A stretch of DNA of 43,202 nucleotides from NCBI GenBank assembly GCA_039804225.1, contig JBDLWN010000005.1:1-43202 (forward strand), written 5' to 3'. The first letter of the stretch is position 1. The number at the start of each line of letters is the position of its first letter. Shown piece after piece: positions 4,234 to 19,616 of this stretch. The notes under the pieces were generated by a model. The model saw nothing but the letters and a program-made list of their open reading frames with translations. It did no database searches and was not told the origin of the DNA. Origin of the DNA: Chloroflexota bacterium (GTDB lineage Bacteria > Chloroflexota > Limnocylindria > Limnocylindrales > Limnocylindraceae). A program made the position numbers and the translations under genes.

Positions 4234-4647
4234 CTACCCGCGACGATTCGCTGGGCGAATGGTTGCCTCGACGCCGTCCGCAACCTGGCGGCGCGTGCGC
4301 AAGAGTTCAGCATGCGCGGCCTCAGCGGCAAGAAGTGGCGGGAAGCGCTTCGTGACGGTGTGGCGCAGTGCAAGAAGTCCAACCAGCGTAGTGGCGATCG
4401 GGAAGAGGCCGTACCACTGGAACGCGGCGTAGACCAAGTTCATTCCAAAGGTGCCGAGGCTGATCCACAGGATGTACTCCCACTCGTCGCCGATTACTCC
4501 CCGCCCGCGGTTGCCGCGAGTCGCGAATGCGTAGACCAAGATCGTTGCAAGGAAGAGCACCAAATTGGCCATCCAGAACGGCGTGTAGAACGTACCAAGA
4601 TCGGCATTCAGTACGGTGAAGAGGTACTCCCACGGCCAACGAAACAT
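4234..4647 (-). CDS. Small integral membrane protein (3-4 TM), function unknown
   Basis: This is the C-terminal 137 codons of ORF 4234..5088(-), starting at the ATG at 4645-4647 (MFRWPWEYLF...). It has hydrophobic helices (MANLVLFLATILVYAF, ILWISLGTFGMNLVYAAF, LFPIATTLVGLLAL). The upstream part of the ORF is Ala/Arg/Ser-rich antisense shadow of the PurH-like gene. Confidence 0.55.
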   Translation of the reverse strand: MFRWPWEYLFTVLNADLGTFYTPFWMANLVLFLATILVYAFATRGNRGRGVIGDEWEYILWISLGTFGMNLVYAAFQWYGLFPIATTLVGLLALRHTVTKRFPPLLAAEAAHAELLRTRRQVADGVEATIRPANRRG

Positions 4648-4729
4648 CTTGTCCTCACTCGCTAGGTTTCGGCTCACCCAGCACAACAGCGTGCGGGTTT
4701 GTGTGAGCGAGTATGCCACCATCAGCAGC

Positions 4730-6112: not shown

Positions 6113-6116
6113 CGCG

Positions 6117-6707: not shown

Positions 6708-6741
6708 GTGCCCGACGGTAGCGCCGCGTAGGATCTACTGC

Positions 6742-7923
6742 ATGGAAGAGATAGAGCGTCTCATTCGCGACGAGGCCCAGCGCGAGGGTTCGATCAGCTT
6801 CGCGCGATTCATGGAGCGCGCCCTGCTCGAACCTGGGCTTGGCTACTACGCCACAGCGCAGCGTCGGGCGGGTCGCACCGGCGATTTCATGACCGCACCG
6901 GAGCTGCACCCCATCCTTGGCGCCGCCATCGCGCAACTGGCGGCTGCAACGTGGGAGCGCCTCGGTCGCCCCGCCACCTTCCGCTGGCGCGAGTACGGCG
7001 CCGGCGAGGGAACTCTCCTCCTAGCGGCACTCGACTATCTCGCTCGCGAGGGGCACCCCCTTCGCGGAGTGCTGGAGGTTTCGGTAAGTGAGGCAAACCC
7101 GCACCGCCTCGCCGATCTAACCGCGGCACTGGCAGCATTCCCGGGAGGAGGGCCACTCCTTGTCACGGCGGGGAGCCCACCCGTCGCCGGGATCGTGGTC
7201 GCCAATGAGTTCGCCGACGCCCTCCCCTTCCACATCGTGGTCGGTCGCGCCGCTGCCCCCGGGGGCTTCGCCGAGCGCCGTGTGGGGGTTGATGCTGTAA
7301 CAAATGCGCTCACCTGGGTCGAGGGGACACCCGACCCGGAGGTCGCCGCTCGGCTCACCTCCCTCATGGCCGGCTGGCCACCCCTGGCGGAGGGGCAGCT
7401 CGCCGAGATCTCGCCAGCCACCGCCGAGTGGGCCCACGGACTCGGAGGCGAACTCACCGAAGGGGTCGTCGTTGTGCTTGATTACGGTCGTGACGGGGTC
7501 GCCCTGCGTGACCCTGTCAGCCGCATGGCCGGAACTGCCCTCGCCTACCAGGGGCACCGAGCCACCGCCGATCTCCTTGGCGAGCCTGGGAGCCGCGACC
7601 TGACCGCCCATGTGGACCTCACCCTGCTACGGACGGCGGCGACAGCGGGTGGACTTCGTCACGTGGCGAGCACGAATCAGGCCAAGTTTCTTGCTACTGC
7701 GGGTGTTGATGGCGAGATTGCCCGAACGCGCACGGGACCGACGGCAACCCTCGAAGGGGCGATCGCCCTGCGCTCCGCACTTGCCCAACTGATGGACCCG
7801 CGCCGCATGGGCGGATTCGCCATCGAGGTGTTTGTGGCGGGGAGTTCTCCAGGGGCACATGCGCTCGCCGACCCTGTATCGCCGCTGCCTGGAACGGCGG
7901 CTCCGAATCGCCCCCTCGTCTAG
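6742..7923 (+). CDS. Class I SAM-dependent methyltransferase of the MidA/NDUFAF7 (DUF185) family
   Basis: ISFARFMERALLEPGLGYYA...GDFMTAPELHPILGAAIA...EYGAGEGTLLLAAL and ...DLTAHVDLTLL... match the MidA/NDUFAF7 family layout (YY..., GDFxTAPE, E.GxGxGxL, DxTAHVDF). ATG at 6742, divergent from folK with a 34-nt spacer. It ends 72 nt upstream of nuoA. Confidence 0.8.
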   Translation: MEEIERLIRDEAQREGSISFARFMERALLEPGLGYYATAQRRAGRTGDFMTAPELHPILGAAIAQLAAATWERLGRPATFRWREYGAGEGTLLLAALDYLAREGHPLRGVLEVSVSEANPHRLADLTAALAAFPGGGPLLVTAGSPPVAGIVVANEFADALPFHIVVGRAAAPGGFAERRVGVDAVTNALTWVEGTPDPEVAARLTSLMAGWPPLAEGQLAEISPATAEWAHGLGGELTEGVVVVLDYGRDGVALRDPVSRMAGTALAYQGHRATADLLGEPGSRDLTAHVDLTLLRTAATAGGLRHVASTNQAKFLATAGVDGEIARTRTGPTATLEGAIALRSALAQLMDPRRMGGFAIEVFVAGSSPGAHALADPVSPLPGTAAPNRPLV

Positions 7924-7995: not shown

Positions 7996-8352
7996 ATGAC
8001 CGGACTCTGGTATGTCCTCGGTTTCGCAGTCGCAGGCGCCTCCTTTGTTTTCCTTACCATCGGCCTCGCCTGGCTCATCTCCCATCGCACGCGCGGCAGC
8101 CGCGGCAAGCAGGTTCCCTACGAGTCGGGCATCGACACGTACGGCGACACCCACGGACGCTTCGGCCTCTCCTTCTATCTCTACGCGCTCCTCTTCGTCG
8201 CCTTCGACGTTGAGATCGTCTTCATCTACATCTGGGCACTGAACTTCAAGGTGCTCTTGTTCGACGGGCTCATCTCCATGGCGATCTTCATCGGCGTACT
8301 GCTCGTCGGACTCGCCTACGCATGGCGTAAGGGGGTCTTGGCATGGCGGTAA
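7996..8352 (+). CDS. nuoA: NADH-quinone oxidoreductase subunit A
   Basis: 118 aa, 3 [42 protein letters not shown] is the NuoA signature (YECG...F.V.FY..A..F..FDVE..F..PW). A GGGGGAG Shine-Dalgarno lies just upstream. Confidence 0.93.
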
Positions 8353-9050
8353 CACGCGATCCGAAGTTCAGCAACCTTCCTGAGGTTCAGCCAGATGGCA
8401 GTATTCAGTCGCCCACCACTGTCGGCAACACGCTGTGGAGCACCGACGACCCACGCGCATACGGCGGACTTCCACTTGAGGCACATCCGAACCTAGAGCT
8501 CGCGCGATACGACGCAACGGGCGACGGCCGCGTTGATGATGCACGCTGGGGCGGCGCGCTCTCTGCCATTCCAACAAAGGCCGACGTTGTGCTCGATCTG
8601 ATTCGCGCCAACAGCCTCTGGCCACTGCTCTCTGGTCTCGCCTGCTGCGCCATTGAGATGATGTCGACAGCAACGCCAAAGAACGACATTGATCGCTGGG
8701 GCATGTTCCCTTTCCGTGCCAGCCCACGTCAGGCCGACGTGTTGATCGTTGCCGGAACACTCACGACAAAAATGGCTGAGCCACTCATTCGCTTGTGGGA
8801 GCAGATGCCTGAACCGAAGTGGGTCGTTGCGATGGGCGACTGCACCTGCTCCGGTGGACGCTACAAGCGCAGCTACTCCGTGGTGCAGGGAATTGATCGC
8901 GTCATGCCTGTTGACGTGTACATCCCCGGGTGCCCACCGCGACCAGAGGGACTGATTTACGGAATGATGAAGTTGCAGCAGTTGGTAAAAGATCGACGCG
9001 GCCACTGGCCAGAGCGCGCGATCGGTCCAACAGTTCCGAAGGGGATCTAA
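8343..9050 (+). CDS. nuoB: NADH-quinone oxidoreductase subunit B (cluster N2), with an N-terminal extension of about 55 aa
   Basis: [41 protein letters not shown] and PGCPPRPE are all present, so all N2 Cys ligands are retained. The start ATG overlaps the nuoA stop by 10 nt. Confidence 0.93.
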
Positions 9051-9602
9051 GTGGATCGCCGACTCGCTGCGCTGTTGCAAGAGAAGGTTGGCGAGCGACT
9101 CCTTACACCGGTGCGCCAGCGATACGATGAGAGCGAAATCCGTGTGGCACTCAACGATGCGACCGACACGTTGCGCACGCTGCACGACGATCCATCGCTG
9201 CGATTTGAAATGCTGATTGACCTCTGCGGTGTTGATACCGGCGAAGAGATGCAGGTTGTGTATCACCTCTCCTCATCCACAAGTGGCGATTGGCTGCGTG
9301 TGATCGTTCCAGGCCTTGATCGCGCTGCGCCACGAATTGCTTCGGCAACATTCATGTGGCCAGGTGCTGAATGGATGGAGCGCGAGGCCTACGACATGTT
9401 CGGCATTATTTTTGAAGGGAATCGCGATTTGCGTCGTATCTACATGCCAGACGATTTCCGCAGCTTCCCGCTGCGCAAAGATTTCTATCTCGCTGACGAC
9501 GCATCACGCTCACCAGCGGCTGGCGTGCGCAACATGGAGCGCGCGGGAACACCGGCCGATGCAACCGCAGCAACAGTGCTGCGCAAGAGCCCAGGGGTAT
9601 AG
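9051..9602 (+). CDS. nuoC: NADH-quinone oxidoreductase subunit C
   Basis: The GTG start follows the nuoB stop directly. LIDLCGVD...VVYHL...WPGAEWMEREAYDMFGIIFEGNRDLRRIYMPDDF..FPLRKDF is the NuoC/30-kDa signature. Confidence 0.92.
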   Translation: MDRRLAALLQEKVGERLLTPVRQRYDESEIRVALNDATDTLRTLHDDPSLRFEMLIDLCGVDTGEEMQVVYHLSSSTSGDWLRVIVPGLDRAAPRIASATFMWPGAEWMEREAYDMFGIIFEGNRDLRRIYMPDDFRSFPLRKDFYLADDASRSPAAGVRNMERAGTPADATAATVLRKSPGV

Positions 9603-9604
9603 CG

Positions 9605-10816
9605 ATGACCCAGCAGATGCGCCCATCACTCGACGATCCGCGAGTAGCGATTCCCGCCGAATCAACGTGGTACGAGCCGGCGCCAATTCCACAAACGGAG
9701 CGACAGGCGGAGTTCCTCACGCTGCGTGAAGGCGAGATGTTTGTGAACATGGGGCCGCAGCACCCATCAACACACGGCGTGCTCCGCGTGATTATCAAGG
9801 TGAATGGCGAGAAAGTCGTTGACCTCGATCCGGTGCTCGGCTATCTGCACCGCGGCGTGGAGAAGCTTTGCGAGAACGCCGACTATCACCAGGCGATCTG
9901 CTACACCGACCCACTCGAATATGTGAGCTCGCTCTTCTGCGAAGCGGCACCAGTTGCCGCCTTTGAAAAGTTGATGGATGTTGATGTGCCACGCCGCGCG
10001 CAGTACATCCGCGTGCTAACGATGGAATTGAACCGCATCGCGAGCCACACCCTCTTTCAGGGGTGGATGGCGCTCGACCTCGGTGGCATCACGCCAATTC
10101 TCTGGGCATTCATTGAACGCGACGAGATCGTCGACATGCTTGCGGCCCTCACCGGCCAGAAGCTCCTCTACAACTACTACCGAATCGGCGGGGTGAACGG
10201 TGACTTGAACCACGAGTTCATGAGTCGTCTCGGCACCTGGATGAGCCGCGCCGCCGCTCAGATTGATTCAAACCTGGCCCTGATCAACGAGAACGAGATC
10301 TTCGTGCGGCGCACGCGCGGCCTCGGCGTTCTTGACGCAAAGACCGCCGTCAAAATGGGGGTCACCGGCCCAAACCTGCGCGCGAGCGGTGTGCCGTTTG
10401 ACCTGCGCCGCGACCGCCCGTATCTCGTCTACCCGGAGCTCGAATTCGACGTGCCAACGCGCGACGAGGGCGACTCGCTGGCGCGCTACCTGGTGCGCAT
10501 GGACGAGATCAAACAGTCGATCCGCATCATTGACCAGGTCCTTCACGAGATGCCCGATGGCCCAGTGATGGCGAAGTTGCCGCGCCTTCTTCGTCCGCGA
10601 CCGGGCCGCGCATTCGGCGCCGTTGAGGGGCCGCGCGGCGTCTATGGCACCTACGCCATTAGCGACGGCACCGATCAGCCATTCCGCATGCGCATTCACG
10701 ACCCATCATTTGTGCACCTGCAACTTGTTGGACCGCTCACCAAGGGGAATCTCATCGCCGACACCATGGCGGTGATGGCAAGCCTTGACCCAGTCATGGG
10801 CGGAGTCGACAAGTGA
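9605..10816 (+). CDS. nuoD: NADH-quinone oxidoreductase subunit D
   Basis: NMGPQHPSTHGVLRVIIKVNGEKVVDLDPVLGYLHRGVEKLCE... and the C-terminal IHDPSF..LQ...L.KG..IAD..A...SLDPVMGGVDK are the NuoD/49-kDa signature. Confidence 0.95.
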   Translation: MTQQMRPSLDDPRVAIPAESTWYEPAPIPQTERQAEFLTLREGEMFVNMGPQHPSTHGVLRVIIKVNGEKVVDLDPVLGYLHRGVEKLCENADYHQAICYTDPLEYVSSLFCEAAPVAAFEKLMDVDVPRRAQYIRVLTMELNRIASHTLFQGWMALDLGGITPILWAFIERDEIVDMLAALTGQKLLYNYYRIGGVNGDLNHEFMSRLGTWMSRAAAQIDSNLALINENEIFVRRTRGLGVLDAKTAVKMGVTGPNLRASGVPFDLRRDRPYLVYPELEFDVPTRDEGDSLARYLVRMDEIKQSIRIIDQVLHEMPDGPVMAKLPRLLRPRPGRAFGAVEGPRGVYGTYAISDGTDQPFRMRIHDPSFVHLQLVGPLTKGNLIADTMAVMASLDPVMGGVDK

Positions 10817-12153
10817 GCGGCGCATCAATGACGTGGAATCGACTGACGCCAGCCGGCCGCGCACTAGCGGTGCTGCTCCCCGTTCTCGCTATTGGTGGCG
10901 CGCTCACCACGCTCCTCCTCGCCACATTTGGTGGCGCTATCGCCGCAACAATTGGCGCAAATCTGCCGATCGTGCGCTTCCTCGTTGCCGCCGTTGTCAC
11001 CTTCCTCATCTCAGTGCCCGTTGCATTCCTCTTGATTTATATGGAGATGAAGATCATCGCGCTCATGAACTTGCGCATTGGACCCGATCGCATCGGACCA
11101 GCAGGCGCAGTGATGAGTGTGGTGCACGGCCTCAAGGTGCTCATGAAAGAGGACTACACGCCACCGAGCGTTGATGTGCCGGTCTTCACCCTTGCGCCTG
11201 TGGTCGTTTATCTCGCAAGTTTCATGACCCTGCTGGTGATTCCGTTTGCACCAGAGCTCACCAGTATGGGCTTCGAGCTTGGACTTCTCTACTTCTTCGC
11301 GATCGGTGGGCTCAGCGTCGTTGGCCTGATGATGGCGGGCTGGTCGTCGTTCAATAAGTACTCGCTGCTCGGCGGCATTCGCGCCGCAGCACAGGCTATC
11401 AGCTACGAGATTCCGCTGACCCTCTCTGTGGTGGGCATCGTGATCCTTACCGGCACGCTCTCACTACCGAAGATCGTCGCTGCACAAGATGGTTCGTTCC
11501 TTGACTGGTTCATCTTCCGCCAGCCACTTGCGGCGATCATCTTCTTTATCGCAATCACCGCAGAGGCAAACCGCACCCCGTTCGACAACGCCGAGGCCGA
11601 CCAAGAGATCGTTGCCGGGTTCGCCACCGAGTATTCGGGGATGCGCTTCGGATTCTTCTTCTTCGCGGAGTACGTCAACGTCTTCATCGTCTCGGCACTC
11701 TTTAGCGCCGTCTTCCTCGGTGGGTCAAACCCACCGATTCACATTGACCTGAATCCGCAGATCCTGATCGACCTCAGTGCGCTCGGCATCGGGCTGCCAC
11801 TCATTGCAGGTCTCGCACCAGTTGTGGGCACGCTGCTCTTCGCCGCACCGATCTGGTTCGCGAGTTCGCGCATCAAGGGTTGGCAGGCACTCGTTGCCGG
11901 ATTCCTGATCTTTGGTGGCGTGTCGACCGCAGCGGTCGGCATCTGGGCCTTTGTGATGCTTCCGCCAGTGGCCAGCCTCATCTGGTTCCTGATCAAAACC
12001 TTCTCGCTCGTCTTCATCTTTGTTTGGATGCGCGGCACACTGCCACGCGCACGCATTGACCAGCTGATGGGCTTCGCGTGGAAGTGGCTCTTGCCAGCAT
12101 CGCTGCTAAACATTTTTGCAACGGCGTTTGCCGTGCTGATTGCGGGGAGCTAA
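10813..12153 (+). CDS. nuoH: NADH-quinone oxidoreductase subunit H, enlarged to 446 aa
   Basis: RIGPDRIGPAGAVMSVVHGLKVLMKEDYTP, GWSSFNKYSLLGGIRAAAQAISYEIPL, TAEANRTPFDNAEADQEIVAGF.TEYSGMRFGFFFFAEY and WMRGTLPRARIDQLMGFAWKWLLP are NuoH motifs. The GTG at 10813 overlaps the nuoD stop (GTGA). Confidence 0.93.
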   Translation: MSGASMTWNRLTPAGRALAVLLPVLAIGGALTTLLLATFGGAIAATIGANLPIVRFLVAAVVTFLISVPVAFLLIYMEMKIIALMNLRIGPDRIGPAGAVMSVVHGLKVLMKEDYTPPSVDVPVFTLAPVVVYLASFMTLLVIPFAPELTSMGFELGLLYFFAIGGLSVVGLMMAGWSSFNKYSLLGGIRAAAQAISYEIPLTLSVVGIVILTGTLSLPKIVAAQDGSFLDWFIFRQPLAAIIFFIAITAEANRTPFDNAEADQEIVAGFATEYSGMRFGFFFFAEYVNVFIVSALFSAVFLGGSNPPIHIDLNPQILIDLSALGIGLPLIAGLAPVVGTLLFAAPIWFASSRIKGWQALVAGFLIFGGVSTAAVGIWAFVMLPPVASLIWFLIKTFSLVFIFVWMRGTLPRARIDQLMGFAWKWLLPASLLNIFATAFAVLIAGS

Positions 12154-12155
12154 CC

Positions 12156-12380
12156 ATGCCAAGAATTCCTGGCACCGGACTGCTATCGGGGATGCGCCTC
12201 ACACTGACGCGCTTCTTCCAGCCGAAGCGCACGGTGCTGTATCCGGAGGTGAAGCCAGACATTGCTCCGCGCAACCGTGGCCGACTCGAACTAGTCACCG
12301 ACGAGCACGGCACGCTGAAGTGCGAGACCTGTTTCCAGTGCGCGCAGGCATGCCCAATCGAATGCATTGACATGGGCGGC
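12156..12380 (+). other. NuoI N-terminal half-domain (amphipathic N-terminus plus the first CxxCxxCxxxCP, nt 12321-12356)
   Basis: See the parent CDS. Similarity to NuoI ends right after CPIECIDMGG; no second Cys motif follows in this ORF. Confidence 0.75.
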
Positions 12381-12977
12381 ACCGACACGAAGGGGCGCTT
12401 CGCCGTGCATTGGGGCCCCGCCGAACAGTACGCAGAGCGACGCGAAGAGTCGGCGATGCGCCGCTCCGGTCGAACCGTCTCTGATGCTGCTGCTGCAACT
12501 GGGGCGACGATCAACACCGCGAAGGTTGACGAGATTCTTGAAGCGCACGACTACGACCCGCATCACATGCTCGCAATCCTTGAAGAGATCCAGGCCGCCT
12601 ACGGCTACCTGCCAGTGGATGCACTGAAGCGAGTGAGCCGCGCTACCGGCGCCTGGTACGCCATGGTCTACGGCACCGCCACCTTCTATAAGCACCTCGC
12701 ATTCGAGCCAGGGGTGACCCGTTCGATCGCCGTCTGCCGCTGCGCTAACTGCCTCGTCTCTGGGGCGGGCTCAGTGATGGGCACCCTCAGCTACGAATTC
12801 GGCACCGAGTTCGGCCGGGCGATCCCGTGGAGCAACCTGCGCCTCGAGTCGCTTCCGAGCCACCTTCCTGACGCCCCATCGCCATTGGTCGTCATTGATG
12901 GGGAGCCGCAGCGTGACCTGAGTGCCAAGAACGCCGCCAGCTGGGCCGCCGCACTTGCCGGCAGGTACGCCGCATGA
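12156..12977 (+). CDS. nuoI-nuoE: Chimeric subunit: the N-terminal half of NuoI (first 4Fe-4S motif only) fused through a linker of about 45 aa to a NuoE-like thioredoxin-fold domain
   Basis: The ATG at 12156 lies 2 nt after the nuoH stop, with GGGGAG upstream. aa 1-75 read LTLTRFFQPKRTVLYPEVKPDIAPRNRGRLELV...KCETCFQCAQACPIECI, the NuoI N-terminus plus a single CxxCxxCxxxCP. aa ~122-273 read ILEAHDYDPHHMLAILEEIQAAYGYLPVDALKRVSRATGAWYAMVYGTATFYKHLAFEPGVTRSIAVCRCANC, the NuoE layout. The stop overlaps the next gene (ATGA). Confidence 0.85.
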   Translation: MPRIPGTGLLSGMRLTLTRFFQPKRTVLYPEVKPDIAPRNRGRLELVTDEHGTLKCETCFQCAQACPIECIDMGGTDTKGRFAVHWGPAEQYAERREESAMRRSGRTVSDAAAATGATINTAKVDEILEAHDYDPHHMLAILEEIQAAYGYLPVDALKRVSRATGAWYAMVYGTATFYKHLAFEPGVTRSIAVCRCANCLVSGAGSVMGTLSYEFGTEFGRAIPWSNLRLESLPSHLPDAPSPLVVIDGEPQRDLSAKNAASWAAALAGRYAA

Positions 12978-14233
12978 AGCGACTGAACGCCCCCAAGGGA
13001 TGGAGCCAGCTCCTCTTCGTGGCGCCGACCGAGCCGTGGGCGGCACTCCGCGCCGCCGCGTCGGCGGGGGCCGCTGGTACGACCGCAACCCTGATCGCCG
13101 CCGGCCTTCGCGGCCGTGGCGGCGGCGGCTTCCTTACTGGAGCTAAGTGGCAGGCGACCGCCGCCGAGCCAGCGAGCCAGTACTTCGCCGTGGCGAACGG
13201 CTACGAATCCGACCCCGCCGTCTTCACCAACCGCCTCCTCATGGAGGAGAATCCACAGGCAATTGTCGAAGGCCTCGCTATTGCTGCTCTTACGGTGGGT
13301 GCCCGCGAAGCGTTCATCGCCGTGCGCGCCGAATACACAGAAGCGATCAAACGACTTGAAGCGGTCATCGCCAACGCCGAACGCGAGGGCATCCTCGGGG
13401 CCACGCTGCTGGGCACCGGCCGCGAACTGATCATCACCGTTCGCCCACTCCAAGGCTCCAGCATGATCGGCGAAGAGACGGTGTTGATGAAGGCGCTCGC
13501 CGGCAAGCGCGGCCAGCCAGAGCAGACCCCGCCATACCCATCAGAGGTCGGCTACCTCGGCAAGCCAACCGCCGTGAACAACGTCGCCACACTCGCTGCG
13601 GTGCCGTGGATCCTCAACAACGGCGCAGAGGCCTTCGCACAGATTGGCGACTCCGCACAGCCAGGCACCGTGCTCGTGCAGATCAGTGGTTCGGTCGCGA
13701 ACCCTGGCGTCATTGAAGTACCGACCGGCACGCCACTCAACGAGATCATCGCGGCAGCGGGCGGCACTGCAAGCGGCGCTTCGATCAAGGCACTACTCGC
13801 TGGTGGGCCAACGGGCGGATTTATTCCGGCGAACCTTTTCGGCGGCACCCCCTATAGCGGCGCGGGCCTCAAGGGTGTTGGCGCACACATCGGCTCGGGC
13901 GCACTCCTCGCACTCGACAACTCGGTCGCCATTCCAGAGCTCGCCACCATGCTGACGCGCTGGTGTGCCGACGAGGCGTGCGGCAAGACCATTCCGTGCC
14001 GCATCGGCACACGCCGGCTCGCCGAGATCGGCCAGCGCTTTGTTGACGGCTTGGCCGGCCCCGCCGATGCAGAGCGGCTGCAGAAGCTCGCCGCCGATGT
14101 CACTGATAGCGCCCTCTGCGCACATGAGGCGCTTGCGCCAAGCCCGCTCCTCACGGGGGTGCGATACTTTGCCTCTGAGTTTGGACCTGCCGTTGCCGCA
14201 TCGTCGGCAACACCAACGAGCGGACGGAGCTGA
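12974..14233 (+). CDS. nuoF: NuoF-like (51-kDa/HydB/StnB-type) flavoprotein subunit, divergent
   Basis: GLRGRGGGGFLTGAKW, ANGYESDPAVFTNRLLME, GSSMIGEETVLMKALAGKRGQPEQTPPYP, GKPTAVNNVATLA and DEACGKTIPCRIG...ALCAHE align to the NuoF motif series (GLRGRGGAGFPTG, NADESEPG, GAGAYICGEE, RxKPPFP, PTxxNNVET, ESCGKCxPCREG...C). Several substitutions fall at ligand positions. Confidence 0.85.
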   Translation: MKRLNAPKGWSQLLFVAPTEPWAALRAAASAGAAGTTATLIAAGLRGRGGGGFLTGAKWQATAAEPASQYFAVANGYESDPAVFTNRLLMEENPQAIVEGLAIAALTVGAREAFIAVRAEYTEAIKRLEAVIANAEREGILGATLLGTGRELIITVRPLQGSSMIGEETVLMKALAGKRGQPEQTPPYPSEVGYLGKPTAVNNVATLAAVPWILNNGAEAFAQIGDSAQPGTVLVQISGSVANPGVIEVPTGTPLNEIIAAAGGTASGASIKALLAGGPTGGFIPANLFGGTPYSGAGLKGVGAHIGSGALLALDNSVAIPELATMLTRWCADEACGKTIPCRIGTRRLAEIGQRFVDGLAGPADAERLQKLAADVTDSALCAHEALAPSPLLTGVRYFASEFGPAVAASSATPTSGRS

Positions 14234-14235: not shown

Positions 14236-16782
14236 ATGGCCGACCTGATTGATCGACCGGCAAGCGCAGTAACACCAGTTTCGCGCACGATTACTCCAGC
14301 GCCACCGGCCGAGGTCGCCGTCGACAAGTTGCTCACCACACGCAGCCCACAACGACCGCAGCGAACGCCAACCTTCTACGTCGAGATCGATGGACAGAAG
14401 CTTGAAGCGTTTGAAGGACAGACCATCCTTGAGGTGTGCCGCGCGAACGGCATTGAGGTACCAACGCTCTGCTACGACCCGAAACTGCCAGGGTTCGGCG
14501 CCTGCCGCATGTGTGTCGTTGATGTCGAAGGATGCGACCAGCCTTCCATCAGCTGTTCAGCGAAGGCGGAGCCAGCACAGGTCGTATCAACGCAGACCGA
14601 TCGCATTCGCGAGATTCGCCGCACCAACCTTGAGCTGATCTTCAGCGACCACAACGCCTACTGCTTGCCGCCATGCCAGAACAAGTGCCCGAGCCACATT
14701 GACATCCCTGGATTCTTGAAGGCGAACGCAGAGTCGCAGTTCCGCGAGTCGGCGCGAATCTTCAAGCGCACCATTCCATTCCCAAGCATCCTTGGCCGCG
14801 TCTGTCCGGCGCCATGCGAAGACCACTGCCGTCGCGACGAGGTAGACGAGGCGATCGCCATTCGCGACAGCCACCGTTACGCCGGCGACCAGGTGTTGAA
14901 GGCAATGTGGGACGAAGATCTCGATCCACCTGTGCCGTTTGAGCTGCAGCCGAAGACTGGTAAGCGCGTCGCAGTGATTGGTTCTGGCCCAGCGGGCGCA
15001 TCTGCTGCGTACTACCTCCTTGTTGCTGGACATGACGTCACCATCTTTGAGAAAGATCCAGAGCCAGGTGGCATGTTGCGCTACGGCATTCCGCAGTACC
15101 GACTACCAAAGATTGAGGTGCTTGACGGCGAGTACCAGTCCATCACGCGACTCGGTGGCCGCTTTGAGTGCGGCAAGATGCTTGGCCGTGACTTCACCGT
15201 TGCTGACCTAAAGGCGCAGGGCTACGACGGCGTCGTTGTTGCAATCGGCTGCTACGACACCAACGACCTCGGCATCCCGGGCGAAGATGCCGACGGCGTG
15301 ATTGACGGCCTCGACTATCTCCACACCGCCGCACTCGGCCTCACCTACCCAGGTCACGAGGGGAGCCGCGTCGTTGTTGTTGGTGGCGGCTACACCTCCA
15401 TGGACTGCTCCCGAACGAGTGTGCGACAAGGGGCTAAGGAGGTCACCCTCGTCTACCGCCGCGACATGAAGGACATGCCAGCCGCCGACGAAGTGCACGA
15501 GATGATCGAAGAGGGGGCGCGCGCCATCTTCCAGGCAGGCCCAACCCGTGTCGTCACCGATGCGAACAACAAGGTGATTGGCCTCGAGTTCATTCGCATG
15601 CAGCTCGGCGCACCAGACGCTTCGGGCCGCCGCCGACCAGAGCCAGCACCCGGCACGGAATTCATTATCGAGTGCGACCGCATTTTGAAGGCGATCGGCC
15701 AGGGCCCCGACATGACCTGGGCAAGTGTCGGCGCAGATGGTGTTGCAACCACGAAGAACGGCCGACTTAAGGCAGATGCTGTGACCTTCCAGACCGGCCG
15801 CGACGGCGTCTTCGGCTGTGGCGACCTGCGCAATGGCGCAACAACCGTCGTCGCCTCGATCGCTGATGGCCGACGCTGCGCCTACGCCGTTGACGCATAT
15901 CTGCAGGGGCTCGACCTGTCGGAGATTCGCAACCGACAGACACTCGCTGAGCCACAGCCGGAGTTCTTGAGCATCGTGCCGTTCACCGCCGAGGTGAAGG
16001 AGCCGCGCTTGCGCCTGAAGGCACTTCCAGCCGAAGAGCGCAAGAACGACTACATCCAGTACGAAATCCCCTACACCAAGCCCGAGGTGATGGCGGAGAG
16101 CACACGTTGCTTGCAGTGCACCTGTGAAGCGATCGGCTTCTGTGACCTGCGACGACTCGGTATTGAATACGGCACCACACTGAAGACGCTTGAGAAGGAT
16201 CACCACGGCGGCGCTGGATTCCGTTCCATTACCGAAAACCGCTGGACCGGAGCAAACCATGACTACATTCGCGACGACTCGCACGCATTTATCTTGCGCG
16301 AGCCATCACGCTGCATCGACTGCGGTCGCTGCGCCAACGTGTGCGCCGAGGTTGTTGGTGCCGCCTGCTACGACTTCATGCGCACCGGTTTCGACACGCT
16401 CGTCACCACGCCGCTTGACATGAGCTTGAACGAGTCGCCATGCGTCTCGTGCGGACGATGTGCAGAAACCTGCCCAACCGGCGCACTGATGCCGAAGCCG
16501 CGAATTCTCACTAAGTACGAGGTCGACGAGTCGCGCTGCATCCTTTGCGGCATCTGCGTTGACGCTTGCCCATACGACGCGCTCCGTAGCGGCTTTGATT
16601 TTGAACTCGCGCACACCGATCGAAGCGAGCCGATGATTGACCTCATCGCGCTCTCAAAGTTGGAACGCACATCAGAGGCAACCTTCATTCGCGGCGAAGC
16701 AAACTGGGAGAACACCGTTGCGGGTCGACGCTACGATCCGGCACGACAGCTTCCGGTGCTGCCGCAGAGCCTCCGGAAGTAG
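14236..16782 (+). CDS. Chimeric 848-aa Fe-S flavoprotein, in order: NuoG/HoxU-type 2Fe-2S domain; GltD/NfnB-type FAD-NAD(P)H oxidoreductase; N5-like 4Fe-4S; hydrogenase-type 2x[4Fe-4S] domain; C-terminal half of NuoI. There is no molybdopterin-like domain.
   Basis: FYVEIDGQKLEAFEGQTILEVCRANGIEVPTLCYDPKLPGFGACRMCVVDVEG...SC = NuoG N-terminal 2Fe-2S. GRVCPAPCEDHC, KRVAVIGSGPAGASAAYYL, PGGMLRYGIPQYRLPK, VVVVGGGYTSMDCSRTSVRQGAKEVTLVYRR, GAPDASGRRRPEP and GVFGCGDLRNGATTVVASIADGR = GltD small-subunit series. CLQCTCEAIGFCDLRRLGIEYG (16108-) is N5-like. CIDCGRCANVC (16312-) plus CVSCGRCAETCPTGAL (16441-) form a HydA/HoxU-type dicluster. YEVDESRCILCGICVDACPYDALRSGFDFELAHTDRSE (16516-) is the NuoI second half. 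Confidence 0.85.
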   Translation: MADLIDRPASAVTPVSRTITPAPPAEVAVDKLLTTRSPQRPQRTPTFYVEIDGQKLEAFEGQTILEVCRANGIEVPTLCYDPKLPGFGACRMCVVDVEGCDQPSISCSAKAEPAQVVSTQTDRIREIRRTNLELIFSDHNAYCLPPCQNKCPSHIDIPGFLKANAESQFRESARIFKRTIPFPSILGRVCPAPCEDHCRRDEVDEAIAIRDSHRYAGDQVLKAMWDEDLDPPVPFELQPKTGKRVAVIGSGPAGASAAYYLLVAGHDVTIFEKDPEPGGMLRYGIPQYRLPKIEVLDGEYQSITRLGGRFECGKMLGRDFTVADLKAQGYDGVVVAIGCYDTNDLGIPGEDADGVIDGLDYLHTAALGLTYPGHEGSRVVVVGGGYTSMDCSRTSVRQGAKEVTLVYRRDMKDMPAADEVHEMIEEGARAIFQAGPTRVVTDANNKVIGLEFIRMQLGAPDASGRRRPEPAPGTEFIIECDRILKAIGQGPDMTWASVGADGVATTKNGRLKADAVTFQTGRDGVFGCGDLRNGATTVVASIADGRRCAYAVDAYLQGLDLSEIRNRQTLAEPQPEFLSIVPFTAEVKEPRLRLKALPAEERKNDYIQYEIPYTKPEVMAESTRCLQCTCEAIGFCDLRRLGIEYGTTLKTLEKDHHGGAGFRSITENRWTGANHDYIRDDSHAFILREPSRCIDCGRCANVCAEVVGAACYDFMRTGFDTLVTTPLDMSLNESPCVSCGRCAETCPTGALMPKPRILTKYEVDESRCILCGICVDACPYDALRSGFDFELAHTDRSEPMIDLIALSKLERTSEATFIRGEANWENTVAGRRYDPARQLPVLPQSLRK
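14644..15915 (+). other. GltD/NfnB-like flavoprotein module inserted inside the NuoG-like Fe-S chain
   Basis: It begins at SDHNAYCLPPCQNKCPSHIDIPGFL. Here a NuoG-type HxxxC runs straight into the GltD-type C...CP...IP motif. It ends near ADGRRCAYAVDAYLQGL. Two Rossmann GxGxxG/A motifs are present (14968-, ~15370-). Confidence 0.8.
16498..16782 (+). other. NuoI C-terminal half-domain (second CxxCxxCxxxCP, nt 16537-16572, plus the FE.A...R tail)
   Basis: YEVDESRCILCGICVDACPYDALRSGFDFELAHTDRSEPMIDL follows the canonical NuoI pattern Y.ID...CI.CG.C.EACP.DAI.....FE.A...R..L. Confidence 0.75.
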
Positions 16783-16785: not shown

Positions 16786-17346
16786 ATGCCGCTCCCCGAC
16801 GTCATCCCGTTTATCGGCCTCGGCTGGTCAGACGTCCTCTTCTTACTGCTGAGCGGCGTAGTCCTTGCCGCAGCGATCGGCGTGGTCTTTGGCCGTGACA
16901 TCATCAAGAGCGGCTTATTCTTGATCCTCACCCTTGGCGCACTCGCAGGTATCTACGTAATGTTGGGCGCCGCGATCGTTGCGGGCGCACAGGTGCTCGT
17001 CTACATCGGTGCAATCAGTGTGCTCATCCTTTTTGCCATCATGCTCACGCAGTCAAAGGTTGCGCCAGTAAAGCTGGCGTTCCAGACACAGGTGGCGCCT
17101 GCCGCCCTTGCCTCGGTCCTACTCGCTGTGATCTTCGGCCTCGCGTTTGGAAGCACAGACTGGGGCTCATCAGTGTTCGCCGATACGCCAGCCGCAACTG
17201 GTACGGCCCCTGTTGCCGCCGCACTCTTCGGCCCGTACCTGCTTGCATTTGAGATCGCAAGCGTGCTCATCCTCTCTGCCGTGATAGGTGGCCTCTATCT
17301 CGCGATGGAACCAAAGACGGACGAAGTGGGCGAGGAGGGGCAGTGA
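16786..17346 (+). CDS. nuoJ: NADH-quinone oxidoreductase subunit J
   Basis: 186 aa, 5 TM. AGAQVLVYIGAISVLILFAIMLT is the NuoJ signature (AxxQxxVYxGAxxVLxxFVxMxL). It starts 3 nt after the upstream stop. Confidence 0.9.
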   Translation: MPLPDVIPFIGLGWSDVLFLLLSGVVLAAAIGVVFGRDIIKSGLFLILTLGALAGIYVMLGAAIVAGAQVLVYIGAISVLILFAIMLTQSKVAPVKLAFQTQVAPAALASVLLAVIFGLAFGSTDWGSSVFADTPAATGTAPVAAALFGPYLLAFEIASVLILSAVIGGLYLAMEPKTDEVGEEGQ

Positions 17347-17663
17347 GCCAAATCGCTGGGAACCTGGAGCCATATCTCGTCCTCTCAGGGATGCTCTTTG
17401 CTATCGGCTCCTTCGGCTTCCTTGCACGTCGAAACGCAATCACGATGTTGATGAGTATTGAGTTGATGCTGAATGCCGTGAACCTTGCCGCACTCGCGTT
17501 CGGCGCATTTATTCCGACACTCGCAGGGGAGGGGGCAGCCTTTGCGCTGTTGATTATCGCCGTGGCGGCGGCTGAGGCCACCGTCGGCCTGGCGATCGTG
17601 ATTGCCATCTTCCGTAACCGGAAGACACCGCTGGTTGACGAGTACGACACGATGAGGCAGTAG
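17343..17663 (+). CDS. nuoK: NADH-quinone oxidoreductase subunit K
   Basis: 106 aa, 3 TM. RRNAITMLMSIELMLNAVNLAALAF...IAVAAAEATVGLAIVIAIFRNRKT is the NuoK signature, including both conserved Glu. GTGA overlap with nuoJ. Confidence 0.92.
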   Translation: MSQIAGNLEPYLVLSGMLFAIGSFGFLARRNAITMLMSIELMLNAVNLAALAFGAFIPTLAGEGAAFALLIIAVAAAEATVGLAIVIAIFRNRKTPLVDEYDTMRQ

Positions 17664-17666
17664 CGG

Positions 17667-19616
17667 ATGATCACTGCAGAGACCCTGGTCGAAGCGGGCG
17701 CCCTTCCGGGCTACGCGCCGCTCCTCCTTCTCCTCCCGCTGCTCGGCTTCGCCTTCACGGCGGCGGTTGGCCGACGCCTCGGCAAACTGGCCCACATCGT
17801 GCCGCTCGGGGCGATCGTCGCCACCTGGGCACTCTCCATGAGCCTGGCGATCCCCGCCCTCACAGGGGGCCTCGGTGAGGCGGGTGCCTCGATGAAGCTC
17901 TTCACCTGGATCGCCTCGGGCGACCTGAGCTTCGGGCTCGGCCTGCACGTCGACGCCCTTACGGGAGCCCTCCTTCTCGTAGTAACCACGGTCGGCGCCC
18001 TCGTGCACCTCTATAGCGTCGGCTACATGAGTCACGACAACGGCTATTGGCGCTTCTTCGCCTACCTGAACCTCTTCATGTTCTCAATGATGCTCCTCGT
18101 TCTCGCCGATAACCTCCTCGTCGTCTTTGCCGCCTGGGAGCTCGTCGGCCTCTCCTCGTACCTGCTGATCGGCTTCTGGTACACGAAGACCGCACCAGGC
18201 TTGGCCGCCAAGAAGGCCTTCATTACAAACCGAGTCGGTGACGTTGGCTTCGTTCTCGGACTGATGGGTCTCGTGGTCGTCTTCGGCTCACTCGACATCA
18301 GTACGGTGCTTGCGGGGGTTGTAGCGGGCGAGCTCGTTGGTCCAGCAGCGACGGTGATTGCCTTACTGATCTTCTGCGGCGCGGTTGGGAAGTCGGCGCA
18401 GTTCCCACTTCACGTCTGGCTCCCCGACGCCATGGAGGGGCCAACTCCGGTCAGCGCCCTCATCCACGCAGCGACCATGGTGAACGCGGGCGTCTATCTC
18501 GTGGCACGAATGAGCCCACTCTTCGCTGCAAGCCCTGAGGCAATGATCATTGTTGCCGCAATCGGCATCTTCACCGCGATCTTCGCGGCCTCAATTGCGC
18601 TCACGCAGACCGACATCAAGCGCGTGCTCGCCTTCTCAACCCTCTCGCAGCTCGGCTACATGTTTGCCGCACTCGGTGTTGGTGCCTGGGTTCCCGCAAT
18701 CTTCCATCTCGTCACGCACGGATTCTTCAAGGGGCTCCTCTTCCTCGGCTCAGGTTCGGTGATTCATGCGGTGAACGGCGAGCAAGAGATGACAAAGATG
18801 GGTGGCCTCTGGCGCAAGATTCCTATTACGTACGCCACGATGTTGGTCGGAACCGTAGCGATTGCTGGCCTACCGCCACTCGCCGGGTTCTGGTCAAAAG
18901 ACGAAATTCTCACCGAAGCATTCAAATTTGGATACGCGTGGGTGTGGCTCGTCGGCATGATCGTTGCCGCCATGACCGCCTTCTACATGTTCCGTCTCAT
19001 GGGACTCACCTTCTGGGGGAAGAGCCGCGTGCATGACGAATCACATGTACACGAATCGCCATGGACGATGACGCTGCCGCTGATCATTCTGGCGGTGCCA
19101 TCGATTGCCATTGGCGCAGCACTCGGCTTCCCAGTCGCAGACGGCGTCATTGTGCATGCGCTTGAACCAATCTTCCATCCGGCGGATGAGATACTCGGCA
19201 TCGAACATAAGCCTTGGGAACTGTTTGGCATCGGCGGACTTCTCATGCTTGGGAGCGTTACCGTTGCCTCAATCGGCACAGCGGTCGGCGTGCGCCTCTT
19301 CCGCAGTGACAACAACGAGTTCCTTGGTCGCGTCACCAAGCGCTTGCAGCCGCTCTACGACGGAAGCCGCAACCGTTGGTACTTTGACGACCTCAATGAT
19401 CTCGTATTCGTGCGCTTTGGACGAAAGTTTTCGAACGCACTCTGGTGGTTTGACCGCCGCGTTGTTGACGGCACTGTGAACGGCGTTGCTTCGCTCACTT
19501 CGAGTGGCGGTCGCGGCTTGCGGCAGATCCAAACCGGTCGCGTGCAAAACTATGCACTCGGCATCGCATTTGGCCTTGTGGCCATTGCTGCCGCTTACCT
19601 GGTGATTGCGGGATGA
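17667..19616 (+). CDS. nuoL: NADH-quinone oxidoreductase subunit L (antiporter-like, with C-terminal lateral helix region)
   Basis: 649 aa. WELVGLSSYLLIGFWY, GKSAQFPLHVWLPDAMEGPTPVSALIHAATMVNAGVYL and FSTLSQLGYMF are NuoL/Mrp-type motifs. Confidence 0.93.
   Translation: MITAETLVEAGALPGYAPLLLLLPLLGFAFTAAVGRRLGKLAHIVPLGAIVATWALSMSLAIPALTGGLGEAGASMKLFTWIASGDLSFGLGLHVDALTGALLLVVTTVGALVHLYSVGYMSHDNGYWRFFAYLNLFMFSMMLLVLADNLLVVFAAWELVGLSSYLLIGFWYTKTAPGLAAKKAFITNRVGDVGFVLGLMGLVVVFGSLDISTVLAGVVAGELVGPAATVIALLIFCGAVGKSAQFPLHVWLPDAMEGPTPVSALIHAATMVNAGVYLVARMSPLFAASPEAMIIVAAIGIFTAIFAASIALTQTDIKRVLAFSTLSQLGYMFAALGVGAWVPAIFHLVTHGFFKGLLFLGSGSVIHAVNGEQEMTKMGGLWRKIPITYATMLVGTVAIAGLPPLAGFWSKDEILTEAFKFGYAWVWLVGMIVAAMTAFYMFRLMGLTFWGKSRVHDESHVHESPWTMTLPLIILAVPSIAIGAALGFPVADGVIVHALEPIFHPADEILGIEHKPWELFGIGGLLMLGSVTVASIGTAVGVRLFRSDNNEFLGRVTKRLQPLYDGSRNRWYFDDLNDLVFVRFGRKFSNALWWFDRRVVDGTVNGVASLTSSGGRGLRQIQTGRVQNYALGIAFGLVAIAAAYLVIAG

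Follow-up and report, generated by a model that had tools for sequence, protein, structure and literature searches.

The window, that is the whole stretch of 43,202 nucleotides analysed here, contains the complex I operon of a freshwater member of the Chloroflexota, a Candidatus Limnocylindrus species; all genes described below lie on the plus strand. The first gene of the operon is nuoA (7996-8352, 118 aa), called as an open reading frame and located at the position where relatives carry PF00507. Four genes recognised by NCBIfam models follow over 8343-12153, namely nuoB (8343-9050, E-value 1.9e-66), nuoC (9051-9602, 7e-33), nuoD (9605-10816, 5e-134) and nuoH (10813-12153, 7e-93). The distal part (16786-22560) consists of open reading frames assigned to nuoJ (16786-17346), nuoK (17343-17663), nuoL (17667-19616), nuoM (19613-21124) and nuoN (21121-22560); nuoJ was supported by NCBIfam, and relatives with the same gene order carry PF00499, PF00420 and PF00361. 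Three genes lie between nuoH and nuoJ. The first (12156-12977, 273 aa) joins the N-terminal half of NuoI to a NuoE-like domain (E'), the second (12974-14233, 419 aa) encodes a NuoF-like protein (F') and the third (14236-16782, 848 aa) a NuoG/GltD-like protein (G') ending in the other half of NuoI. All 11 core subunits (A, B, C, D, H, I, J, K, L, M and N) are encoded in this one operon, NuoI as two halves only. No second NuoF was found within the window, and no ferredoxin gene was present among the open reading frames called in the operon.

The order nuoA-B-C-D-H-[I_N::E']-F'-[G'::I_C]-J-K-L-M-N was observed in all three relatives with listed gene calls, their last three genes being called from Pfam PF00361. 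This layout recurs in Limnocylindria genomes, the other loci compared having orthologues wherever the contig reached, and the fusion protein occurs in no fewer than 564 genomes of GTDB. A description of it was not found in the literature searched, including that on Limnocylindria. Missing canonical residues, detailed below, are the only feature that would speak for decaying pseudogenes or for an assembly or frameshift artefact. Such an origin is virtually out of the question: none of the reading frames is broken, and their stop and start codons overlap or adjoin; the layout is repeated in independently assembled genomes, and dN/dS values of 0.03-0.05 together with this recurrence rule out decay and artefact alike.

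A divided NuoI and a NuoG/GltD-like protein

Comparison with the NCBIfam model and BLASTP searches showed that NuoI is cut between its two cysteine motifs, the halves residing on two different polypeptides. The N-terminal half (12156-12485; aa 1-110 of the 273-aa protein) continues in frame into E' and contains the first CxxCxxCxxxCP motif (C56, C59, C62 and C66; aa 56-67). Its residues 12-76 match positions 1-64 of model TIGR01971, it is 41% identical to residues 25-83 of E. coli NuoI (E 2e-14), and 53% of its columns were invariant among 36 genomes. The C-terminal half (16501-16782) corresponds to aa 756-848 of G' and contains the second motif (C768, C771, C774 and C778; aa 768-779); aa 756-802 match model positions 71-117, and BLASTP aligned this half with E. 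coli NuoI residues 66-129 (E 6e-11). The NCBIfam score for NuoI was 42, below the curated cut-off of 113, and no single polypeptide carries both motifs. The second motif aligns with the cysteine motif C691-C698 of NfnA, which was taken to be cluster A5. AlphaFold2 did not confidently model the NuoI half of the 273-aa protein.

The body of G' (14236-16500) comprises a NuoG-type [2Fe-2S] domain (aa 49-140), a GltD/NfnL-like FAD and NADPH domain with two [4Fe-4S] clusters (aa 141-560), a CxxCxCx5C motif and then a 2x[4Fe-4S] ferredoxin-like domain (aa 681-755). Its best PDB matches were 9bov_A, the NfnA protein of C. saccharolyticus (4.5e-165), and 8oh5_C, StnC (1.3e-142). The Fe-S cysteines of G', aligned to those of NfnA, were all invariant in 57 relatives, and in 57 of 57 His213 stands at the position of NfnA Lys170, which ligates A7 together with three cysteines. 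A molybdopterin-like domain is lacking, and the Fdh-like part of NfnA beyond about residue 700 is absent. The FAD/NADPH motifs GSGPAG, GGGxTxMDCxRTS and VYRR were invariant or nearly so in 36 genomes; homology and the VYRR motif suggest specificity for NADPH rather than NADH. G' is the most constrained subunit, with 54% invariant columns overall and 89% in its 2x[4Fe-4S] domain, against 47% for NuoD, 24% for F' and 19% for E' (36 genomes). The GltD-like stretch had a dN/dS of 0.009, and with these conserved motifs it is the best candidate for the main input, in support of an earlier proposal that its FAD module is the functional NAD(P)H site.

Candidate metal sites of the NuoE- and NuoF-like proteins

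E' (12486-12977; aa 111-273) matched Pfam PF01257 (3.5e-18), its closest solved relatives being HydC and NfnC. The AlphaFold2 model (pLDDT about 90 over aa 121-270) was matched by Foldseek to HydC, NfnC and NuoE chains with a probability of 1.00, and the two-domain NuoE fold, a helical N-domain followed by a thioredoxin-like domain, was recovered; the best NuoE score in NCBIfam was 53.8, below the cut-off of 141. Only the first pair of the four-cysteine Cx4C...Cx3C [2Fe-2S] signature of NuoE is present. It lies in C194-R-C196-A-N-C199 (12735-12752), where an ungapped alignment places C194 and C199 at the first pair of HydC, NfnC and E. coli NuoE; C196 is an additional cysteine. The columns of the second pair, reached by an ungapped alignment to HydC, are S235 and D239 (S235-H236-L-P-D239, 12858-12872, within LESLPSHLPDAP). 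Column 235 holds Thr, Ser or Ala and column 239 Gly, Asp or Glu; cysteine occurred at neither in 118 relatives, which bears out the loss of both residues reported in the preliminary description. His236 adjoins the first lost cysteine, and it was present, like C194, C196 and C199, in 118 of 118 relatives. These four candidate ligands are among only nine invariant residues of the thioredoxin-like domain in an alignment of 36 proteins.

F' consists of a NuoF/BfuB-like core (12974-14233) with Rossmann, ubiquitin-like and four-helix domains (Pfam PF01512, PF10531 and PF10589). It matched HydB, NfnB and StnB with E-values of about 1e-88, its aa 40-405 aligning to residues 146-511 of the 584-aa StnB, and scored 315.8 against the NuoF model TIGR01959 of NCBIfam (cut-off 558.65). 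Where ESCGKCxPC is expected, F' reads EACGKTIPC; the second N3 cysteine is replaced by T339 in the motif C336-G-K-T339-I-P-C342 (13979-13999), invariant in 36 genomes. Three of the four N3 cysteines are kept (C336, C342 and the distal C382). The Cys to Thr change, already noted in the preliminary description, was found in 116 of 117 relatives, with Ser in the remaining one. The distal cysteine belongs to C382-A-H384-E385 (14117-14128), where two candidate replacement ligands follow: His384 (116/117) and Glu385 (117/117). In E. coli NuoF the position of His384 is occupied by His400, and its imidazole is in contact with an iron of N3 (PMC8357420). No part of F' is better conserved than the N3 region, where 11 of 13 columns are invariant (36 genomes); T339, H384 and E385 do not vary in these genomes either. 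It is worth noting that the missing-ligand changes are fixed in at least 117 relatives, which is not the pattern of decay.

Three rarer sister lineages with the same operon layout (L087, L089 and L090) display intermediate ligand sets. The CxCxxC motif of E' is found in each of them. At the N3 site of F', L087 has a cysteine at the E385 column, L089 has three N3 cysteines and no obvious fourth ligand, and L090 combines Thr at the second N3 cysteine with Leu instead of His at the H384 column while sharing Glu385, which weakens His384 as the sole answer to the lost cysteine. Four candidate ligands remain in every sampled E' protein; among the four F' lineages this is true of two, L089 and L090 having no evident fourth one at N3. 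Three other fusions (P0351, P0309 and P0318) joined a ferredoxin-like N-terminus to a canonical NuoE; P0351 was rejected as an ancestor-like form, as it adjoins PFOR-like genes in a soluble Bfu-type cluster and not a nuo operon. The protein P0257 has the CxCxxC motif and no second-site ligand.

The candidate sets C194/C196/C199/H236 of E' and C336/C342/C382/H384 of F' resemble known sites with three cysteines and one histidine, such as NuoG N5 and NfnB B2. Cluster N5 of NuoG is His-ligated. In C. saccharolyticus NfnB, the B2 site proved to hold Zn, not Fe-S, where a cluster had been predicted. Sets of this kind in E' and F' could likewise bind Zn instead of an Fe-S cluster. As far as can be read from these residues, ligands were probably swapped rather than simply lost, and the term 'cofactor-depleted', applied to both subunits in the preliminary description, is probably wrong for their metal sites: the extra cysteine of VCRCANC and His236 are candidate alternative ligands in all 118 E' relatives, a finding of the kind that the preliminary description had itself named as speaking against its reading, and in F' T339, H384 and E385 hardly vary.

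The flavin and dinucleotide pocket of F'

The Gly-rich nucleotide loop GLRGRGGGGFLTGAKW (13103-13150, aa 44-59) had a mean conservation of 0.87, against 0.71 for F' overall (36 genomes); its counterparts in C. saccharolyticus NfnB are loop 1, F159 and K164. The counterpart of NADExEPG reads NGYESDPA (13196-13219, aa 75-82), with Y77 instead of Asp. At this column Tyr was found in 115 of 117 relatives and Phe in the other two, and the residue is aromatic in all split-NuoI lineages; E78 is kept in 108/117 and D80 in 117/117. Of the changes once listed for this motif, the Asp to Tyr replacement stands, whereas the second acidic position, an Asp, represents no loss, HydB, NfnB and StnB all reading NADEGDPG. 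The counterpart of GAGAYICGEET is LQGSSMIGEET (13448-13480, aa 159-169), where GAGA(F/Y)(V/I)CGEE is altered to LQGSSMIGEE with no gap and S163 replaces Tyr178 (E. coli numbering); similarly, (K/R)PPFP has become TPPYP. Both alterations had been described and were confirmed, but two of their substitutions, Y178S and K/R200T (E. coli numbering), are limited to the genus-level clade of the window, about half of the family retaining Tyr and Arg. At the S163 column, Tyr occurred in 58 and Ser in 55 of 117 relatives, Ser being found only in this clade. Changes not mentioned previously are G174L/V, A175Q, C180I/L, E220A, N224A, S350A and a variable N217. Several columns are partly variable (His, Asn or Gln at N202; Ala, Val or Gln at A205; Tyr or Ser at S163), as are the first Asn and the Glu of the NNVET counterpart, and some members have Ala, Val or His instead of the adenine-stacking Phe.

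Altogether, four reference enzymes agree at 122 positions, and F' departs from them at 43 of these, many being in flavin-pocket motifs (the reference fragments of HydB, NfnB, StnB and NfnA were copied from HMMER alignments and may contain small transcription errors). FMN may for this reason be absent from F', in which case the E'/F' branch would have no substrate site. Loss of the NADE Asp is by itself no proof of FMN loss. RnfC, the NADH- and FMN-binding Rnf subunit of the Complex1_51K superfamily, has the same Rossmann and ubiquitin-like core as F'; E. coli RsxC reads NAAECEP and QNVGT where F' has NGYESDP and NNVAT, lacking both the NADE Asp and the NNVET Glu, and RnfC of C. tetanomorphum binds non-covalent FMN and NAD+ (PMC9588780). 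RnfC differs from F' in having no N3-type four-helix cluster site, in carrying a C-terminal 2x[4Fe-4S] domain and in belonging to another membrane complex.

The dN/dS values of E' (0.032) and F' (0.053) indicate, as that of the GltD-like stretch, strong purifying selection. E' and F' are the least conserved subunits of the complex and the fastest-evolving among the peripheral-arm parts. NuoF is among the most conserved subunits of canonical complex I. The preliminary description held that both proteins had lost [2Fe-2S], N3 and FMN and were retained as a mere scaffold, the GltD-like FAD being the sole NAD(P)H site. The missing canonical ligands, the flavin-pocket substitutions (G174, A175, N217, E220 and N224 included) and the fast evolution agree with this reading, as do Y178S, R200T and a shorter N-terminus in the genus of the window. 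Yet conservation in these otherwise fast-evolving proteins is highest at the remodelled sites, ligands were replaced stepwise in sister lineages, and the Gly-rich loop, GEET and RGQPEQxPPYP clearly exceed the average conservation of F'. Given these residues and the RnfC precedent, a pure scaffold is unlikely.

Other features of F' point in the opposite direction. The Gly-rich loop, GEE and PPYP are kept, and all named NADH contacts of the C. saccharolyticus NfnB structure have counterparts, placed by motif: F159, F294, G156, K164, E274 and the GSG loop of NfnB correspond to F53, Y188, G50, K58, E167/E168 and G307-S308-G309 of F'. To judge from these contacts, F' might be a full second input, a competent NADH:FMN dehydrogenase with unusual N3/N1a-type ligation in a dual NADH and NADPH complex I that uses the canonical FMN-N3-N1b route. 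The conserved E78 and D80, the N3 site, the [2Fe-2S] domain of G' and the lack of another NuoF in the window would fit such an enzyme, and an aerobic heterotroph needs some route of NADH oxidation. Nevertheless, F' is the least conserved subunit, its flavin-pocket columns are changed and partly variable, and the adenine-stacking Phe is not maintained, so that a dual input is possible but rather doubtful.

Electron input and its relation to known enzymes

The electron-input module is closest to, and probably derives from, the soluble electron-bifurcating transhydrogenases of the Bfu type, NfnABC/StnABC (C. saccharolyticus 9bov, S. ovata 8oh5 and T. sibiricus 9n5u). These share adjacent genes for a NuoE-like, a NuoF-like and a [2Fe-2S]-GltD/NfnL-like-Fe-S protein and gave the best matches for F' and G'; the aligned cysteines and FAD/NADPH motifs of G' add to the likeness with NfnA. 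Several features set the module apart. Its genes lie inside a nuo operon, E' starts with one NuoI half, and G' lacks the formate-dehydrogenase-like (pterin) domain of the Bfu-type A subunit and ends in the other half. F' is without the N-terminal thioredoxin-like and C-terminal 2x[4Fe-4S] domains of the B subunits. The counterparts of C1 and B1 have non-canonical ligands, with two canonical cysteines in C1 and three in B1 instead of the all-Cys flavobicluster B1-FMN-C1 of Bfu enzymes (PMC11829005), and the Lys ligand of A7 is a His.

Resemblance to bifurcating NfnABC, StnABC and HydABC, with counterparts for B1, the FMN site and C1, raises the question of whether the module is still a Bfu-type bifurcating or confurcating site connecting NADPH, NAD+/NADH and a low-potential carrier or quinone. 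This appears very improbable. The 2x[4Fe-4S] domain missing from F' carries electrons from C1 towards ferredoxin in Bfu enzymes (PMC11829005), both clusters of the flavobicluster and A7 are unusually ligated, and the operon contains no ferredoxin gene.

Compared with the canonical N-module (NuoE/F/G of E. coli and T. thermophilus), the folds and the order of sites (flavin pocket, N3-, N1a- and N1b-type clusters) are the same, and the Q- and P-module genes are ordinary. The module differs in its canonical cysteines (two of four for N1a, three of four for N3), in the Tyr at the NADE Asp, in a GltD-like FAD/NADPH domain inserted into a NuoG-like protein without molybdopterin-like domain, in the splitting of NuoI and its fusion to neighbours, and in F' being least, not among the most, conserved. 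The nearest published idea to the operon layout concerns the Mbx-like operons of Thermotoga and proteobacteria, where a GltD-related flavoprotein stands in for NuoI; the passages of that report dealing with these operons describe, as here, a GltD-type NAD(P)(H) site directly on a complex I-like membrane enzyme and mention no NuoE/F-like pair (PMC4758237). Unlike these operons, the window retains NuoI as two halves and inserts a whole Nfn-like trimer.

In C. saccharolyticus NfnABC, the electron route is FAD-A7-A6-A3-A2-A1-[B1-FMN-C1], with a side branch A2-A4-A5 (PMC11829005). For the Limnocylindrus enzyme, we favour, at about even odds, an Nfn-type-derived input with a main NADPH route through G' and a side branch formed by E' and F' with ligand-swapped metal sites. 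NADPH would reduce the FAD of G', and electrons would travel along its [4Fe-4S] chain and the clusters of the re-assembled NuoI to reach N2 in NuoB and finally quinone; the transfer from a G' cluster to NuoI is suggested by analogy with one homologous structure. E' and F' would branch off through the [2Fe-2S] cluster of G'. Neither would be free of cofactors: ligand swaps would have preserved a metal site in each, with Cys194, Cys196, Cys199 and His236 in E' and Cys336, Cys342, Cys382 and His384 or Glu385 in F', and the dinucleotide pocket of F' would also be kept. Constraint on this branch is much weaker than on the G' route, and in the genus of the window the flavin pocket has been eroded further through Y178S and R200T. 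The most likely role of the branch would be to clamp both NuoI halves onto G' and to act as an off-pathway redox site or low-flux NADH entry, like N1a and N7 in canonical complex I.

A more speculative and quite improbable view is that E' and F' represent a repurposed flavobicluster in a hybrid Nfn-complex I, interconverting or sensing NADPH and NADH and coupled to, or gating, proton-pumping quinone reduction. His- or Glu-ligated clusters would in this case have a higher or pH-dependent potential. If true, this would amount to an energy-conserving Nfn-complex I fusion, going beyond a different input.

Descriptions of complex I usually give it a fixed NADH-input module, and the roles of the off-pathway N1a cluster and of the N3/FMN environment are debated. 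Under the favoured NADPH route through G', a lineage abundant in lakes and soils would possess a complex I in which an NADPH-type GltD flavoprotein is the likely main donor site. A ferredoxin-like subunit, NuoI, has been split and would be rebuilt from two polypeptides, and in the NuoE/NuoF pair the ligands of both flavin-adjacent clusters appear to have changed in successive steps, some of which are still represented by sister lineages. Such a series from nature can reveal what in N1a, N3 and FMN is required for catalysis, for stability or to keep reactive oxygen in check. It also connects respiratory complex I with the soluble bifurcating Bfu enzymes and bears on the NADPH/NADH balance in these organisms.

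A split NuoI around an Nfn-like module

The complex I operon of the window followed the order nuoA-B-C-D-H ... J-K-L-M-N, with a module of three genes inserted between nuoH and nuoJ. The first gene (12156-12977) encodes a 273-aa protein, the C-terminal two-thirds of which form the NuoE/HydC/NfnC-like domain studied here as E' (aa 111-273), with a thioredoxin-like [2Fe-2S] ferredoxin domain at aa 125-261 (Pfam PF01257). The second (12974-14233) encodes F', a NuoF/BfuB-like protein considered over its whole 419 aa and containing a Nuo51 FMN domain, an SLBB domain and the NuoF Fe-S region (Pfam). The third (14236-16782) encodes G' (848 aa), in which Pfam recognized a NuoG-type [2Fe-2S] domain, Fer4_20 and pyridine-nucleotide-disulphide-oxidoreductase domains, both being those of GltD-like proteins, and further 4Fe-4S motifs.

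NuoI was found in two halves, each carrying one CxxCxxCxxxCP motif, with the three-gene Nfn-like module placed between them. The N-half (12156-12485) makes up the first 110 residues of the 273-aa protein and is fused to E'; aa 12-76 corresponded to positions 1-64 of TIGR01971 (NCBIfam) and BLASTP found 41% identity with residues 25-83 of E. coli NuoI. The C-half (16501-16782) occupies the last ~90 residues of the GltD-containing G', where aa 756-802 corresponded to TIGR01971 positions 71-117 and E. coli NuoI residues 66-129 were matched with an E-value of 6e-11 (BLASTP). Since each cluster of a 2x[4Fe-4S] ferredoxin fold is ligated from both Cys motifs, the 273-aa protein and G' would have to co-fold to build N6a and N6b.

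The module was closest to the electron-bifurcating (Bfu-type) enzymes NfnABC, StnABC and HydABC. F' matched HydB, NfnB and StnB at about 1e-88, versus 1e-65 to 1e-70 for NuoF chains, G' matched C. saccharolyticus NfnA at 4.5e-165 and StnC at 1.3e-142, and the best matches of E' were HydC and NfnC. F' comprises the NuoF-like core only, without the N-terminal thioredoxin-like and C-terminal 2x[4Fe-4S] domains of Bfu B subunits, and G' lacks the Fdh-like domain. Every Fe-S Cys of G' was invariant, and the Lys ligand of cluster A7 (K170 of C. saccharolyticus NfnA) was replaced by an invariant His, His213 (14872-14874), found in 57 of 57 relatives and also in the sister lineage represented by locus L087. 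In S. ovata, Lys-to-Arg and Lys-to-Cys substitutions at A7 lower bifurcating activity by ~50% and 100%, respectively (PMC11829005). A soluble Bfu-type cluster (1804-7726 of locus L085) adjoined PFOR-like genes, and its NuoE-like subunit had an N-terminal ferredoxin-like half with a single CxxCxxCxxxCP.

Several other features of the region were recorded. A Methyltransf_28 gene (6616-7923, + strand; Pfam PF02636, E 8e-34) lay directly upstream of nuoA, and its counterpart was also located upstream of nuoA in relatives L002-L004; the mitochondrial complex I assembly methyltransferase NDUFAF7/MidA is a member of this family. NuoB (8343-9050) carried a ~75-aa N-terminal extension ahead of its conserved domain, and the NuoH models matched NuoH (10813-12153; 446 aa) as two separate stretches, a pattern suggestive of extensions or an insertion. 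At its N-terminus (12974-13100), F' of the window's genus was without ~12 N-terminal-domain residues found in E. coli NuoF and other lineages, its total length being 419 aa versus 441-443 aa in relatives at ~60% identity. Further along the + strand, a cluster encoding a CDP-alcohol phosphatidyltransferase, a myo-inositol-1-phosphate synthase, a lipid A-type acyltransferase and a GT4 glycosyltransferase (23085-29151) showed likeness to a phosphatidylinositol(-mannoside) lipid pathway.

Distribution and evolutionary constraint

The fusion of the NuoI N-half to E' was encoded in at least 564 genomes in a scan that took a single genome for each GTDB species, and among the matches listed almost every carrier bore the label Limnocylindrus, Limnocylindrales or Chloroflexota. 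The 273-aa protein itself was 99% identical to that of a Candidatus Limnocylindrus MAG. The full gene order was present in all three listed relatives with called genes (60-84% identity), and the other fetched loci contained orthologues of the same genes (47-99% identity) wherever the contig reached. Rarer lineages, including one relative labelled Chloroflexi, had in common the layout nuoD-nuoH-[I_N::E]-F-G, where I_N is the NuoI N-half: the nuoH-[I_N::E]-F-G part was seen at 1999-4217 of L087 and 2930-5091 of L090, and the short contig of L089 contained E and F only (36-2257).

Nei-Gojobori dN/dS values between the window and six close relatives were 0.053 for F', 0.032 for E', 0.022 for the NuoI N-half, 0.018 for NuoD, 0.015 for whole G' and 0.009 for its GltD-like stretch. 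Decay of E' and F' is ruled out, all parts being under strong purifying selection, which was three- to sixfold more relaxed on F' and E' than on the G' route. The fractions of invariant columns across 36 genomes followed the same direction, from 89% in the 2x[4Fe-4S] domain and 78% in the Fer4_20 domain of G' (54% for G' as a whole), through NuoB (50%), NuoD (47%), NuoL (41%) and NuoH (34%), to 24% in F' and 19% in E'. NuoF ranks with the best conserved subunits of canonical complex I, whereas F' was the least conserved subunit here. The GSGPAG, GGGxTxMDCxRTS and VYRR motifs of G' were invariant or nearly so, and the NfnA FAD homologous to that of G' is the NADPH site (PMC11829005). With F' and E' least and G' most conserved, the proposal of the preliminary description that electrons enter mainly at the GltD-like FAD site gained support from low dN/dS, invariant columns and conserved FAD/NADPH motifs alike.

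Flavin pocket and metal sites of E' and F'

In HMMER alignments of F', NADEGDPG was replaced by NGYESDPA, GAGAFVCGEE by LQGSSMIGEE without a gap, and (R/K)PPFP by TPPYP. The reference fragments of the solved proteins were copied out of printed alignments. E. coli NuoF, HydB, NfnB and StnB have the same residue at 122 positions, of which 43 were altered in the F' family. Many of the altered positions lie within the flavin-pocket motifs (C89A, A91G, D92Y, G97A, G174V/L, A175Q, C180L/I, N217 variable, E220A, N224A) and two are N3 positions (S350A, C354T). The altered NADE, GAGAY and KPPFP motifs had been noticed previously and are real, but the earlier list was incomplete, the closest relatives ordinarily have Asp at the second acidic position, and Y178S and K/R200T, although present in the window, are confined to its own clade.

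Loss of FMN is one reading of these changes. The NADE Asp was Tyr or Phe in every split-NuoI lineage, columns G174 and A175 were bulky, the NNVET motif varied at its first Asn and at its Glu, and Tyr178 and Arg/Lys200 (E. coli numbering) were also lost in the window's genus. A working pocket is favoured by the presence of a counterpart for every named NADH contact of C. saccharolyticus NfnB (F159, F294, G156, K164, E274 and the GSG loop, equivalent to F53, Y188, G50, K58, E167/E168 and G307-S308-G309 of F'), by nine invariant columns out of 11 in the RGQPEQxPPYP loop, and by a GEET motif invariant except at E168 (34/36). C. tetanomorphum RnfC, of the same superfamily, binds non-covalent FMN and NAD+ (PMC9588780), and the NADE and NNVET columns of its E. 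coli homologue RsxC read NAAECEP and QNVGT; the F' substitutions by themselves may therefore not be taken as proof of FMN loss.

In gap-free HMMER alignments of E' to solved structures, C194 and C199 fell on T. maritima HydC's first Cys pair, and S235 and D239 filled the columns of its second. A MAFFT alignment with E. coli NuoE agreed, confirming the reported absence of the second [2Fe-2S] pair; the E. coli ligands include C92, C97 and C133 (PMC8357420), and the fourth would be C137 from the Cx3C spacing. C194, C196, C199 and H236 were invariant in 118 relatives, where columns 235 and 239 were never Cys, and these four made up 4 of the 9 invariant residues of the thioredoxin-like domain in a 36-protein family alignment and 4 of 14 in a second set from 36 genomes. 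CxCxxC was accompanied by the canonical CxxxC in L087, by only the first Cys of that pair in L089 and L090, and by a His adjoining its column in the Limnocylindria family; the soluble relative L085 kept the canonical [2Fe-2S] ligand set. From these patterns, the sister lineages would be intermediates in a ligand exchange of E.

At the N3-type site of F', ESCGKCxPC was replaced by EACGKTIPC, the second Cys being T339, as previously described, and the distal C382 being kept (HMMER, ungapped). T339, H384 and E385 were each shared by 116 or more of the 117 relatives, and 11 of the 13 motif columns were invariant, versus 24% across F'. H384 is the counterpart of E. coli NuoF His400, the imidazole of which touches an N3 iron (PMC8357420). 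L090 shared the Thr and Glu, but had Leu in place of His384; in L087 and L089 the third N3 Cys was Gly, and L087 had a new Cys at the E385 column, three residues past the distal one. Three Cys with a nearby His, Glu or Cys thus recur. C. saccharolyticus NfnB has Zn sites of 3Cys+1His and 3Cys+1Glu where clusters had been predicted, and the candidate centres of E' and F' may be [4Fe-4S], [3Fe-4S], [2Fe-2S] or Zn. The near invariance of C196, H236, T339, H384 and E385 points to ligand exchange at the metal sites instead of the depletion proposed in the preliminary description.

The most likely electron route

In NfnABC, electrons follow the path FAD-A7-A6-A3-A2-A1-[B1-FMN-C1], with A2-A4-A5 branching off as a dead end in the direction of a defunct pterin domain (PMC11829005). 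The NuoI C-half motif aligned with the NfnA Cys motif C691-C698, which we take to be cluster A5. The former dead end would now pass electrons to the rebuilt NuoI and on to N2 and quinone, and the arm formed by the [2Fe-2S] cluster, the N3-type site, the flavin pocket and E' would have turned into a side branch. E' and F' may also act as a clamp, a plausible role since E' is covalently joined to one NuoI half and the NuoE-like subunit of NfnABC sits wedged between subunits A and B (PMC11829005). Conservation of the metal sites and of the dinucleotide pocket suggests a further redox or NADH-linked role.

No description of the split-NuoI/Nfn-like layout was found in the literature searched, for Limnocylindria or elsewhere; the nearest published idea (PMC4758237) is a GltD-like flavoprotein in place of NuoI in Mbx-like operons. 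The enzyme is read as a complex I combining an Nfn-like input with a split NuoI, and its E' and F' subunits are better read as remodelled in their ligands than as depleted.
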